DNA of 64,000 nucleotides from Escherichia coli. Lineage in GTDB: Bacteria > Pseudomonadota > Gammaproteobacteria > Enterobacterales > Enterobacteriaceae. Below the pieces are notes generated by a model that was not told where the DNA came from, did no database searches, and saw only the letters and a program-made list of their open reading frames with translations. Made by a program: the position numbers and the translations under genes. Positions 2,064 through 34,451 of this stretch are shown one piece after another. Position 1 is the stretch's first letter. The number at the start of each line of letters is the position of its first letter. Location of the stretch: NCBI RefSeq assembly GCF_001677475.2, contig NZ_CP015229.1. One strand, given 5' to 3'.

Positions 2064-3608
2064 ATGTCGGTTTCTAAAAAACCTATGGTACTGGTGATTC
2101 TGGATGGCTATGGCTATCGTGAAGAACAACAGGATAACGCCATTTTTAGTGCTAAAACCCCGGTAATGGATGCACTGTGGGCCAATCGTCCGCATACCCT
2201 GATCGACGCTTCCGGTCTGGAAGTCGGTCTGCCTGACCGTCAGATGGGTAACTCCGAAGTAGGCCACGTTAACCTGGGTGCCGGCCGCATCGTGTATCAG
2301 GACCTGACTCGTCTGGACGTTGAAATCAAAGATCGCGCTTTCTTTGCTAATCCGGTGCTGACTGGCGCGGTAGATAAAGCGAAAAACGCAGGCAAAGCAG
2401 TTCACATTATGGGTCTGCTCTCCGCAGGCGGCGTACACAGCCACGAAGATCACATCATGGCGATGGTAGAACTGGCAGCTGAACGCGGCGCAGAAAAAAT
2501 CTACCTGCACGCATTCCTTGACGGTCGCGACACTCCGCCGCGCAGTGCTGAATCCTCGCTGAAAAAATTCGAAGAGAAATTTGCCGCACTGGGCAAAGGC
2601 CGCGTAGCGTCCATCATTGGTCGTTACTACGCGATGGACCGCGATAACCGTTGGGATCGCGTTGAAAAAGCTTATGACCTGCTGACTCTGGCGCAGGGCG
2701 AGTTCCAGGCCGATACCGCCGTTGCTGGTTTGCAGGCTGCTTATGCTCGCGACGAAAACGACGAATTCGTGAAAGCGACCGTTATTCGTGCAGAAGGTCA
2801 GCCAGACGCGGCAATGGAAGACGGCGATGCGCTGATTTTCATGAACTTCCGTGCTGACCGCGCGCGTGAAATCACTCGTGCATTCGTGAACGCTGATTTC
2901 GATGGCTTCGCGCGTAAGAAAGTGGTTAACGTCGATTTCGTGATGCTGACCGAATACGCCGCTGACATCAAAACTGCGGTTGCTTACCCACCCGCTTCCC
3001 TGGTTAACACCTTCGGCGAGTGGATGGCGAAAAACGACAAAACTCAGCTGCGTATTTCCGAAACCGAAAAATATGCCCACGTCACTTTCTTCTTTAACGG
3101 TGGCGTAGAAGAGTCGTTCAAAGGCGAAGATCGCATTCTGATCAACTCACCGAAAGTGGCTACCTACGATCTGCAACCGGAAATGAGCTCCGCAGAGCTG
3201 ACCGAAAAACTGGTTGCGGCAATCAAGAGCGGCAAATACGACACCATTATCTGTAACTATCCGAACGGCGACATGGTAGGTCACACCGGGGTGATGGAAG
3301 CGGCGGTTAAAGCGGTTGAAGCGCTGGATCACTGCGTGGAAGAAGTCGCGAAAGCGGTTGAGTCCGTGGGTGGACAACTGCTGATCACCGCTGACCACGG
3401 TAACGCTGAGCAGATGCGCGATCCGGCAACGGGTCAGGCACACACGGCACACACCAACCTGCCAGTTCCGCTGATTTACGTTGGTGATAAGAACGTGAAA
3501 GCGGTTGAAGGCGGCAAACTTTCTGACATCGCGCCGACCATGTTGTCGCTGATGGGTATGGAAATCCCGCAAGAGATGACTGGTAAGCCGCTGTTCATCG
3601 TGGAATAA
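2064..3608 (+). CDS. gpmM: 2,3-bisphosphoglycerate-independent phosphoglycerate mutase
   Basis: ORF track starts at an upstream alternative start; true start at ATG 2064 ([19 protein letters not shown]) gives 514 aa matching the iPGM family. Confidence 0.93.
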
Positions 3609-3641
3609 TCCCTCCCCATGAGGGGAAAGGCGATTAATACC

Positions 3642-4901
3642 ATGACACGGGCCGTGAAACCGCGCAGGTTTGCAATCAGGCCCATCATCTACGCCAGCGT
3701 TCTGAGCGCTGGCGTATTGTTGTGCGCCTTTTCCGCCCACGCGGATGAGCGTGACCAACTCAAATCCATTCAGGCTGACATCGCCGCGAAAGAGCGCGCG
3801 GTACGCCAAAAGCAACAACAACGCGCAAGCCTGCTCGCACAATTGAAAAAGCAGGAAGAAGCGATCTCTGAAGCCACCCGTAAACTGCGCGAAACGCAAA
3901 ACACGCTCAATCAACTGAATAAACAGATTGATGAGATGAACGCGTCGATTGCCAAACTGGAGCAGCAAAAAGCCGCCCAGGAGCGCAGCCTCGCCGCACA
4001 ACTGGATGCCGCATTCCGTCAGGGCGAGCATACCGGTATTCAGCTAATTCTCAGCGGTGAAGAAAGCCAGCGTGGTCAGCGTTTACAGGCTTATTTCGGC
4101 TATCTCAACCAGGCGCGACAAGAAACCATTGCTCAGTTGAAACAAACGCGTGAAGAAGTCGCTATGCAGCGTGCCGAACTGGAAGAGAAACAGAGCGAGC
4201 AACAAACGCTTTTATATGAGCAGCGCGCCCAACAGGCGAAGCTGACCCAGGCGTTGAGCGAGCGTAAAAAGACGCTGGCAGGGCTGGAGTCTTCCATCCA
4301 GCAAGGTCAGCAACAGTTGAGCGAGCTGCGCGCCAACGAATCCCGTCTGCGTAACAGCATTGCCCGTGCGGAAGCCGCGGCGAAAGCGCGTGCTGAACGT
4401 GAAGCGCGCGAAGCCCAGGCGGTTCGCGACCGCCAGAAAGAAGCGACGCGCAAAGGCACCACCTACAAACCGACCGAAAGCGAAAAATCGCTGATGTCCC
4501 GAACTGGTGGCCTGGGTGCGCCGCGTGGTCAGGCATTCTGGCCGGTTCGCGGGCCGACGTTGCATCGCTATGGCGAGCAGCTACAGGGTGAATTACGCTG
4601 GAAAGGGATGGTTATCGGTGCCTCTGAAGGTACTGAAGTTAAAGCGATTGCCGACGGTCGGGTGATTCTGGCTGACTGGCTGCAAGGCTACGGTCTGGTG
4701 GTGGTGGTTGAGCATGGTAAAGGCGACATGAGTCTTTACGGCTATAATCAGAGCGCACTGGTGAGCGTTGGTTCGCAGGTTCGCGCGGGCCAGCCAATTG
4801 CACTGGTGGGCAGCAGTGGCGGTCAGGGTCGGCCTTCACTCTATTTCGAAATTCGCCGCCAGGGTCAGGCGGTCAATCCACAGCCGTGGTTGGGAAGATA
4901 A
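3642..4901 (+). CDS. envC: murein hydrolase activator EnvC (coiled-coil plus LytM/M23 domain)
   Basis: Signal peptide MTRAVKPRRFAIRPIIYASVLSAGVLLCAFSAHA, Q/E-rich coiled coil, C-terminal M23-like domain; 419 aa from ATG 3642. Confidence 0.92.
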   Translation: MTRAVKPRRFAIRPIIYASVLSAGVLLCAFSAHADERDQLKSIQADIAAKERAVRQKQQQRASLLAQLKKQEEAISEATRKLRETQNTLNQLNKQIDEMNASIAKLEQQKAAQERSLAAQLDAAFRQGEHTGIQLILSGEESQRGQRLQAYFGYLNQARQETIAQLKQTREEVAMQRAELEEKQSEQQTLLYEQRAQQAKLTQALSERKKTLAGLESSIQQGQQQLSELRANESRLRNSIARAEAAAKARAEREAREAQAVRDRQKEATRKGTTYKPTESEKSLMSRTGGLGAPRGQAFWPVRGPTLHRYGEQLQGELRWKGMVIGASEGTEVKAIADGRVILADWLQGYGLVVVVEHGKGDMSLYGYNQSALVSVGSQVRAGQPIALVGSSGGQGRPSLYFEIRRQGQAVNPQPWLGR

Positions 4902-31408: not shown

Positions 31409-32125
31409 TCAGTTTGCCAGCGCCGCCTTCTGCGTCGCTACAATGGATTCGATTCCCCCTCGGGCCAGCGCCAACAAGGTGAGTAACTCTTCATGGGTGA
31501 ACGGCTCGCCTTCTGCCGTCCCCTGCACTTCAATGATGCGCCCGTCTTCGGTCATCACTACGTTCATGTCGGTCTCTGCGGCTGAGTCTTCAACGTATTC
31601 CAGATCGCAAACCGCTTCGCCGTTCACAATTCCGACAGAAACTGCGGCTACCATCCCTTTCATCGGGTTGGTTTTCAGCTTGCCGTTTTCCACCAGCTTC
31701 TGTAGCGCATCTGCCAGCGCCACGCAGGCACCCGTAATCGACGCGGTACGCGTGCCACCATCAGCCTGAAGCACGTCGCAGTCCAGCGTAATGGTGAACT
31801 CACCCAGCGCTTTCAAATCTACTGCCGCACGAAGAGCACGGGCGATCAGACGCTGGATTTCCATGGTGCGTCCACCCTGCTTACCTTTCGCCGCTTCACG
31901 CGCGTTACGGGTGTGGGTAGAACGTGGCAGCATGCCGTACTCTGCGGTGATCCAGCCCTGGCCCTGACCTTTCAGGAAGCGCGGCACGCCTTCTTCAATA
32001 GAGGCGGTACACAACACTTTGGTATCGCCAAATTCGACCAGCACCGAGCCTTCTGCATGTTTTGTATAGTTACGAGTCAGGGTAACGGGACGCACCTGAT
32101 TATTGCTACGGCCTGCTGGACGCAT
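31409..32125 (-). CDS. rph: ribonuclease PH (intact)
   Basis: Start at [32 protein letters not shown] gives 238 aa with intact C-terminus. Confidence 0.93.
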
Positions 32126-32251
32126 ATTGAAATCTCCGGCTTGAAACAAATGTGGCTGCGCATTATACGGACTTCCGGCGGTTATTCCTATCCTGACAAG
32201 GCATCGATGGCTATAATCCTTCCACCTCTCCTTTTATAAACAGGAACGTCT

Positions 32252-33115
32252 ATGATCCGCAGTATGACCGCCTACGCCCGGCGTGAAATCAAGGGTGAAT
32301 GGGGGAGCGCAACCTGGGAAATGCGCTCGGTAAACCAGCGTTATCTGGAAACTTACTTTCGTCTGCCGGAGCAGTTCCGTAGCCTTGAACCTGTCGTTCG
32401 TGAGCGTATTCGTTCTCGCCTGACGCGCGGTAAAGTGGAATGTACCCTGCGCTATGAGCCAGATGTTAGCGCACAAGGTGAGCTGATCCTCAACGAAAAA
32501 CTGGCTAAACAGCTGGTAACTGCCGCGAACTGGGTGAAAATGCAGAGTGACGAAGGGGAAATCAACCCGGTTGATATTCTGCGCTGGCCAGGCGTGATGG
32601 CAGCCCAGGAGCAGGATCTCGACGCGATTGCCGCTGAAATTCTCGCGGCGTTGGATGGTACGCTGGACGACTTTATCGTCGCGCGCGAAACCGAAGGTCA
32701 GGCGCTGAAAGCATTGATCGAGCAGCGTCTGGAAGGCGTCACCGCCGAAGTGGTCAAAGTCCGCGCCCATATGCCGGAAATCCTGCAATGGCAGCGTGAG
32801 CGTCTGGTCGCGAAGCTGGAAGATGCTCAGGTGCAACTGGAAAACAACCGTCTGGAGCAGGAGTTGGTTCTGCTGGCACAACGAATTGACGTTGCCGAAG
32901 AACTGGACCGCCTCGAAGCGCATGTCAAAGAGACCTACAACATTCTGAAGAAAAAAGAAGCGGTTGGCCGTCGTCTGGACTTTATGATGCAGGAGTTCAA
33001 CCGCGAGTCGAACACTCTTGCTTCGAAGTCTATCAATGCCGAAGTGACAAACTCCGCCATCGAGCTGAAAGTGTTGATTGAGCAGATGCGCGAGCAGATT
33101 CAGAATATTGAGTAA
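32252..33115 (+). CDS. yicC: YicC family stress-induced protein
   Basis: 287 aa; MIRSMTAYARREIKGEWGSATWEMRSVNQRYLE. Confidence 0.9.
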   Translation: MIRSMTAYARREIKGEWGSATWEMRSVNQRYLETYFRLPEQFRSLEPVVRERIRSRLTRGKVECTLRYEPDVSAQGELILNEKLAKQLVTAANWVKMQSDEGEINPVDILRWPGVMAAQEQDLDAIAAEILAALDGTLDDFIVARETEGQALKALIEQRLEGVTAEVVKVRAHMPEILQWQRERLVAKLEDAQVQLENNRLEQELVLLAQRIDVAEELDRLEAHVKETYNILKKKEAVGRRLDFMMQEFNRESNTLASKSINAEVTNSAIELKVLIEQMREQIQNIE

Positions 33116-33274
33116 CTCGTAACACTAATTCTTACTTTTCAGCCTTCACAAATGCCGCCCACTCAAACAGAGCGGCATTTTTCTTCCCCGCAACTTCAAT
33201 TCTGTTTTGCGTGCCTGCTCCAGATTTTGCGATGTTTTTTTGCCCAGCACACTGAGAACGTGAGATACTCACAG

Positions 33275-33290
33275 CTGTATATAAATACAG
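33275..33290 (+). promoter_or_regulatory. LexA (SOS) box upstream of dinD
   Basis: CTGTATATAAATACAG, a perfect CTGT-N8-ACAG palindrome 46 nt upstream of the dinD ATG. Confidence 0.8.
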
Positions 33291-33335
33291 TTACAGATTT
33301 ACTTTCTTTGCAATCGATATCACATGGAGTGGGCA

Positions 33336-34160
33336 ATGAACGAACATCATCAACCTTTTGAAGAAATACGGCATTATGGCACTGAAGGGCAAGAATTTTG
33401 GTCAGCGAGAGAATTGGCACCGTTACTGGATTATCGGGACTGGCGCAATTTTCAAAAGGTACTTACCCGCGCGACTCAAGCGTGCGAAGCCAGCAATCAA
33501 GCTGCATCTGACCATTTCGTTGAAACCACCAAAATGGTTGTATTAGGTTCAGGGGCTCAACGAGAACTTGAAGATGTTCATCTCTCCCGCTATGCCTGTT
33601 ACCTGGTAGTACAAAACGGCGACCCTGCGAAACCGGTTATTGCGGCAGGGCAAACTTATTTTGCTATCCAGACCCGACGGCAGGAGCTGGCTGACGATGA
33701 AGCTTTCAAGCAACTTCGTGAAGACGAAAAGCGTCTTTTTCTGAGAAATGAGTTGAAAGAACATAACAAACAATTAGTTGAGGCAGCGCAGCAAGCTGGG
33801 GTAGCGACAGCTATCGATTTCGCCATATTTCAGAATCATGGTTACCGGGGACTGTATGGTGGATTAGATCAGAAAGCCATCCATCAGCGGAAGGGGCTGA
33901 AAAAGAGTCAGAAGATCCTGGATCATATGGGTTCAACAGAACTGGCGGCTAATCTCTTTCGAGCTACCCAAACAGAAGAAAAACTCAAGCGGGATGGCGT
34001 GAATTCAAAACAGCAAGCTAACACCACACACTTTGACGTGGGTCGCAAGGTGAGGCAAACCATTCAGGAACTTGGCGGAACCATGCCTGAGGAGTTGCCG
34101 ACCCCGCAGGTCAGCATCAAGCAGTTGGAAAACAGTGTAAAAATTACAGAGAAAAAATAG
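33336..34160 (+). CDS. dinD: DNA damage-inducible protein D
   Basis: Start at MNEHHQPFEEIRHYGTEGQEFWSARELAP; 274 aa; preceded by LexA box. Confidence 0.9.
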   Translation: MNEHHQPFEEIRHYGTEGQEFWSARELAPLLDYRDWRNFQKVLTRATQACEASNQAASDHFVETTKMVVLGSGAQRELEDVHLSRYACYLVVQNGDPAKPVIAAGQTYFAIQTRRQELADDEAFKQLREDEKRLFLRNELKEHNKQLVEAAQQAGVATAIDFAIFQNHGYRGLYGGLDQKAIHQRKGLKKSQKILDHMGSTELAANLFRATQTEEKLKRDGVNSKQQANTTHFDVGRKVRQTIQELGGTMPEELPTPQVSIKQLENSVKITEKK

Positions 34161-34451
34161 CAGAAACTAAAAACTCTTTTTGTTGATTGAGACACCCGAT
34201 GCGTAAGCCAAAGTCCAGGTGCGGTGAACACAATGGCTAAACATTGCACCTTTCTTTTCCACCCCTCAATTTTAACCTATTTTTTCTTATGCATTTTCTC
34301 AGACAAGTAGTCAGAAGAATGCATCTACGCTACAGAAAATAGCGATTTCACATAACTACAAGTTATCAATTTCCTCTCACCTTAAAAAATCTCAATCGTG
34401 ACAATGCGCACAAATCGCTACCCTGCCAGACAGATTTTTAGGGAGAGAACC

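Follow-up and report, generated by a model that had tools for sequence, protein, structure and literature searches.

The LexA operator of Escherichia coli dinD and LexA-type boxes upstream of dinD relatives

Prophage antirepressors can be placed under LexA control, as in the case of Tum of coliphage 186, a small phage-type regulatory protein that is made on DNA damage. Among chromosomal genes of E. coli, dinD is listed with those that have a known SOS box, and the relief of LexA repression by RecA-stimulated self-cleavage is established SOS biology (PMC6590174). In E. coli K-12, dinD is induced 9.8-fold by AZT with a 12-fold dependence on cleavable LexA (lexA3), and its box, with a heterology index of 2.2, has the third lowest value in the same table (PMC11228462 Table 1). 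UV induction of dinD was also found to be LexA-dependent by RT-qPCR with lexA3(Ind-) and lexA71(Def) strains, in a study that includes AACTGTATATAAATACAGTT among its SOS boxes (PMC3009722). Ciprofloxacin raises both dinD mRNA and DinD protein (PMC11002266), and DinD has been grouped with proteins that act to remove RecA filaments (PMC4849656, citing Uranga et al. 2011).

Here we analyzed a LexA-type site in a 64-kb stretch of E. coli DNA (hereafter the window, meaning the whole stretch) and compared it with these described systems. We are highly confident that the site at 33275-33290 is the LexA operator (SOS box) of dinD, and no observation speaks against it. The presence, score and orthology of the box and the identity of the gene come from the present sequence analysis, and LexA dependence and damage induction come from the published K-12 experiments. 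Induction of dinD that needs a cleavable LexA, which the original prediction had proposed as a check, was already in print for K-12 with a positive result (PMC11228462, PMC3009722). The dinD operator is real, was correctly read and is already known, dinD being a textbook member of the SOS regulon; the annotation confirms this classic member and changes nothing for the field, and the comparative side results reported below are of modest value.

The dinD gene and its operator

The gene downstream of the site occupies 33336-34160 on the plus strand and encodes 274 amino acids plus a stop codon. It had been called dinD from the outset, an identification secured by the NCBIfam equivalog NF008573 (504.7 bits over residues 1-274; cut-off 242) and by synteny with K-12 and strain 536, in both of which the gene is annotated dinD. 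The gene order in the window is pyrE-rph-yicC-dinD-yicG-ligB, of which rph-yicC-dinD-yicG-ligB matches the annotation of K-12 and strain 536. The N-terminus of DinD carries a BRO-N domain (Pfam PF02498, residues 10-105, E = 2.6e-11). An alternative in-frame ATG is present at 33324; the ATG at 33336 is the annotated start in K-12 and strain 536 and agrees with the conserved MNE... start of homologues. A Shine-Dalgarno sequence, GGAG, can be read 5 nt 5' of this ATG (33327-33330, plus strand), and the leader ggagtgagc(a/g)ATGAACGA is kept in the Yersinia, Pectobacterium and Pseudocitrobacter homologues.

Two further features lie outside the operator. Near the 3' end of dinD, 16 nt complementary to tisAB RNA (CAGCATCAAGCAGTTG, 34112-34127, plus strand, exact match) are exactly conserved in the window strain; this complementarity has been described, and an effect on dinD mRNA could not be shown (PMC2577331). 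The rph gene (31409-32149, minus strand) appears intact, its full 238-aa product aligning to those of non-K-12 strains, while K-12 MG1655 carries the truncated rph-1, with 209 residues that align with the window product.

The pattern CTGT-N8-ACAG occurs once in the 64-kb window, as CTGTATATAAATACAG at 33275-33290 read on the plus strand, and forms the core of a 20-bp operator, AGCTGTATATAAATACAGTT, at 33273-33292. The operator is intergenic between yicC and dinD. It had been described as a perfect palindrome lying 46 nt upstream of dinD, a description that needs two adjustments. The motif is where it was said to be and its arms, CTGTAT and ATACAG, are palindromic on either side of an all-A/T spacer, but the central ATAA is not symmetric, and 2 of the 16 positions change on reverse complementation. 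The distance of 46 nt is correct if counted to the A of the ATG at 33336, but the intervening gap is 45 nt. The claim of SOS control was upheld by orthology, as the site aligns with the dinD SOS box of K-12 with 19 of 20 bases identical, within a yicC-dinD intergenic region that shows 99% column identity in an alignment with K-12 and strain 536.

A search of the window with the 20-bp consensus TACTGTATATATATACAGTA, allowing up to three mismatches, returned no match because the window box differs from it at four positions, and matrix scoring was therefore used instead. We built a position matrix from the 17 E. coli SOS boxes of PMC3009722 Table 4 that remain when dinD is excluded. On this leave-dinD-out matrix the 20-mer reaches 22.1 bits (23.0 bits once the matrix is symmetrised), about 9 bits ahead of the runner-up in the window (12-14 bits), which itself equals the mean best score in shuffled sequence (13-14 bits). 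Proven boxes span 12.8-27.7 bits on these matrices, with lexA at 22.3, recA at 21.5 and sulA at 22.7, and the dinD box falls in this range. Elsewhere in the window, matrix matches at 17448-17467 and 17606-17625 (12-14 bits) are probably due to chance, being equal to the mean shuffle maximum; they lie some 160 bp apart, in or between minus-strand genes of an AT-rich waa-like cluster.

The window operator has one departure from K-12, at position 2 of the 20-mer (33274), where A is replaced by G. This flank change is a new observation. A 35-mer centered on the G had 0 matches among 5,426 complete E. coli genomes. With A substituted at that position, as a control for low-complexity masking, the 35-mer matched 4,406 of the 5,426, so that the zero for the G variant is meaningful. 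The 80-nt stretch around the box likewise had no 80/80 match among these genomes. Such a private substitution might weaken LexA affinity and give a higher basal level or earlier induction of dinD than in K-12, which would refine the main reading; we consider this unlikely. The change does cost 1.2-2.1 bits of matrix score and raises the recomputed heterology index by 1.0 to 1.6, from 2.95 to the window value of 4.56 (unsymmetrised) and from 3.73 to 4.74 (symmetrised). However, the G-variant box still equals or outscores the recA, sulA and lexA boxes on these matrices, G is found at the same position in the proven lexA (TGCTGT) and ruvA (CGCTGG) boxes, and the change lies outside the CTGT core. 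It is also a single base in one assembly and could be a sequencing error. The expected effect on the dinD operator, as judged from the matrix, is a modest weakening at most, and the substitution could be used as a naturally occurring variant to measure how much operator position 2 contributes to LexA affinity.

More broadly, the 24 kb from 21000 to 45000 of the window show 97-98% identity to the closest of the 5,426 complete genomes and 90-95% to most of them, which indicates a source lineage that is either unrepresented in the genome collection or mosaic. For the dinD region taken by itself, identity to B2 strains such as 536 is 99.1%.

It is very improbable that the site is a chance AT-rich near-palindrome, or merely a TATA-like part of a promoter, with LexA playing no role in the window strain. 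The bare 16-mer pattern is indeed weak evidence, with a mean of 0.51 matches per window in dinucleotide shuffles and at least one match in 41 of 100 shuffles, and TATAAA-like hexamers can be found within the spacer. The significance of the site comes from the score of the full 20-mer and not from the 16-mer pattern: by the exact tail probability of the matrix score, sites at the level of the dinD box are expected 1-2e-3 times per window. Position weight matrix scoring, another check named in the original prediction, thus came out in favor of the operator, at 22-23 bits and about 0.002 such sites per window. The TATA-like hexamers lack a good -35 at the right spacing, and the K-12 orthologue of the site is an operator validated by experiment. 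Its CTGT and ACAG arms are moreover kept at the same position in the divergent dinD allele of E. coli KE47, whose box, AACTGTATATAAACACAGTT (2938-2957 of locus L003), has changes in nearby bases.

Equally improbable is a palindrome that acts without LexA, for instance by forming a hairpin in RNA or DNA or by binding another dimeric regulator such as a prophage repressor. A BRO-N/antirepressor-like protein from a mobile gene family does make a phage-type regulator conceivable, but a hairpin with 6-bp arms of A/T-rich pairing around a 4-nt center would be weak, all informative positions of the sequence agree with the LexA matrix, and the published lexA3 dependence explains the regulation.

Promoter context and a proposed mechanism of dinD repression

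Taking the site as a LexA operator, we considered its position relative to signals for transcription. A terminator-like hairpin follows yicC at about 33150-33185 on the plus strand, 5' of the operator, and consists of AAUGCCGCC...AGCGGCAUU with nine pairs and a subsequent U run. Its predicted folding energy is -12.4 kcal/mol (z = -3.18); none of 200 shuffled sequences gave a fold as stable. A consensus terminator scan of 33000-34400 called none, the 13-nt loop of this hairpin being probably above the limit of the scan. Because the hairpin separates yicC from dinD, dinD should have a promoter of its own.

Permissive hexamer scoring of 33190-33335 gave as its top pair a candidate -35, TTGCCC (33240-33245, plus strand), and a candidate extended -10, TGaGATACT (33261-33269, plus strand). 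This putative promoter, TTGCCC-18-TGaGATACT, is weak, with 8 of 12 hexamer matches, and stops 3 nt 5' of the operator. A strict sigma-70 consensus scan of 33000-34400 found no promoter, and a literature search found no mapped dinD transcription start. Both candidate hexamers are unchanged in the KE47 allele, where two substitutions fall within the intervening spacer. From this arrangement we infer a dinD +1 at about 33275-33278, within the left half of the operator.

Together these elements are consistent with the following model. In undamaged cells, a LexA dimer would sit on the 20-bp site with one monomer on each of the CTGT and ACAG half-sites, and, being just 3' of the likely -10 and over the likely +1, would block initiation by RNA polymerase at dinD. 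Upon DNA damage, RecA filaments on single-stranded DNA would stimulate LexA self-cleavage, freeing the operator and allowing dinD to be transcribed. A near-consensus operator of this kind should bind LexA tightly, so that dinD would be well repressed and strongly induced. As DinD removes or inhibits RecA filaments according to the literature, its synthesis could in turn feed back on the SOS signal. Given the single difference between the two 20-mers, the operator of the window strain would be expected to behave like that of K-12.

DinD relatives and predicted LexA boxes beyond E. coli

Within E. coli, strain KE47 (locus L003, NZ_CP141089.1) carries a dinD allele (3001-3822) with only about 85% protein identity to the window DinD, and the products of its flanking yicC and yicG genes are 99.7% and 100% identical to those of the window. 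The KE47 allele suggests an allelic replacement by recombination. Several database records that surfaced in the searches are unusual. NZ_CP141089.1, CP125156.1 (L004) and NZ_CP119140.1 (L007) are entered in PLSDB as "plasmids" of 2.2-5.4 Mb and are evidently whole chromosomes. The record MG065691.1, 'UNVERIFIED: Campylobacter phage A11a', contains at 119935-126756 (L006) an E. coli rph-yicC-dinD-yicG-ligB segment in which the region upstream of dinD is identical to K-12; this segment probably entered the assembly from the host or as a contaminant.

A scan of species-representative genomes yielded at least 80 loci with DinD relatives, 66-89% identical and spread across many phyla, with no Escherichia species (E. 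albertii, E. fergusonii, E. marmotae) among them. Distant hosts include metagenome-assembled genomes labelled Chlamydiae, Spirochaetes, Bacteroidetes, Geobacter and Phycisphaerae. In model searches, DinD hit both PDC-S13, a phage-defence candidate of PADLOC (E = 1e-124), and a model of a type I specificity subunit that includes a DinD-like portion. Among PHROG families, it matched one whose function is unknown, with marginal matches to the antirepressor Ant (E about 3e-4). Among the matches listed, 27 of 80 dinD loci have neighbors that fall in one cluster, represented by a protein with N6_Mtase and Methylase_S domains (type I restriction-modification), and HsdR-type genes then follow in at least seven loci. 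Homologues are also found in Streptococcus satellite phages and on Zymomonas and Thiothrix plasmids. In Burkholderiaceae, dinD lies 3' of mnmE in five loci, three of which have an integrase gene next (again among the matches listed). Judged by these genomic settings, the DinD family is widely transferred and often embedded in type I restriction-modification loci, which is a new point, and the context suggests that E. coli dinD may be a captured mobile gene that was put under SOS control.

We scored the 300 nt upstream of each of these at least 80 dinD loci with the LexA matrix. Strong LexA-type boxes (14.8-23.1 bits) lie upstream of eight dinD loci, two from Citrobacter and six from Burkholderiaceae, and only of these among the matches listed. 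All eight predicted boxes have the form CTGT-N8-(A/C)CAG and are located within about 110 nt upstream of the DinD-family gene; elsewhere in those 6.8-kb loci a single site reaches that score level. The predicted Citrobacter box, CACTGTAAAAA(T/C)ATCCAGTA, is found at 2945-2964 of both ibpB loci (L032 and L037). The predicted box of Burkholderia, Paraburkholderia and Caballeronia, ACCTGTA(T/C)AAAAA(C/G/A)ACAGT(A/G), is placed about 70-110 nt upstream of the gene (L051, L052, L054, L079, L084 and L087). In Citrobacter werkmanii (L037, 2992-3765) the dinD homologue is broken into two ORFs (104 and 141 aa) with the strong predicted LexA box still present, and may be a pseudogene or reflect a sequencing error; the C. 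portucalensis homologue is an intact 276-aa ORF.

Eight loci from seven other Enterobacterales genera (among the matches listed) have dinD directly 3' of yicC, namely those of Pseudocitrobacter, Yersinia massiliensis, Pectobacterium fontis, Rahnella, Photorhabdus, Providencia and two Morganella (L008, L010, L011, L015, L016, L030, L033 and L034). By matrix scoring of 300 nt, none of these eight syntenic loci has a LexA box upstream of dinD. The ribosome-binding leader of E. coli is nevertheless conserved in three of the eight box-less loci (Pseudocitrobacter, Yersinia and Pectobacterium). At ibpB, the intergenic regions of Citrobacter, Klebsiella and Pluralibacter can be aligned, with Citrobacter CACTGTAAAAATATCCAGTA set against Klebsiella CAGTTTAAAAAACAATCATA, and at the homologous position the box is absent or degenerate in Klebsiella and Pluralibacter. 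The dinD homologues on the Thiothrix plasmid and in Neisseria have no LexA box upstream.

LexA control of the DinD family appears to be patchy, with turnover through few point mutations. The presence of a box in Escherichia, Citrobacter and Burkholderiaceae and its absence from the eight syntenic Enterobacterales loci, Klebsiella and Pluralibacter suggest repeated gain or loss. The absence of the box from syntenic Enterobacterales dinD and the different boxes of Citrobacter and Burkholderiaceae are new points, and a strong operator in one genus that is missing from the same gene and locus in its neighbors makes a clean, small example of regulon turnover. With slightly less than even confidence, we propose that LexA control of dinD is not ancestral and that a mobile gene was instead drawn into the SOS regulon in particular lineages. 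If this is true, the "damage-inducible" name would be unearned for most of the hundreds of annotated homologues, and the original role of DinD may lie in defence or mobile-element biology and not in the control of RecA. The product name 'DNA damage-inducible protein D' has been propagated to homologues that give no sign of LexA control.

Comparison with known operators and LexA-controlled proteins

The closest known site is the K-12 dinD (pcsA, b3645) box, which is found at the same locus and the same distance from the ATG and has an identical 16-bp core; the two 20-mers are distinguished by G in the window strain and A in K-12 at position 2. The boxes of umuDC, sbmC and recN, of the TACTGTATATAAAAACAGTA type, share with the dinD box the architecture CTGTATATAAA(A/T)ACAG and a low heterology index. 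These are strongly induced LexA-dependent genes, but they are genes other than dinD, and their boxes have the flanks TA...TA where the window dinD box has AG...TT. Position 14 is T in the dinD box and A in the umuDC and sbmC boxes.

The predicted boxes of Citrobacter (CACTGTAAAAATATCCAGTA) and Burkholderiaceae (ACCTGTATAAAAACACAGTA) resemble that of E. coli in placing a strong LexA-type site before a DinD-family gene, but they differ from it in sequence, and the DNA around them cannot be aligned to the E. coli promoter. The loci differ as well: dinD of E. coli is next to yicC, the Citrobacter homologues follow ibpB, and those of Burkholderiaceae have mnmE on one side and an integrase gene on the other. 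At the level of the protein, DinD is comparable to Tum-type antirepressors in being a phage-type protein (BRO-N) directly under a LexA operator. Unlike them, it is encoded by a chromosomal gene outside any prophage, and its reported target is the RecA filament and not a phage repressor.
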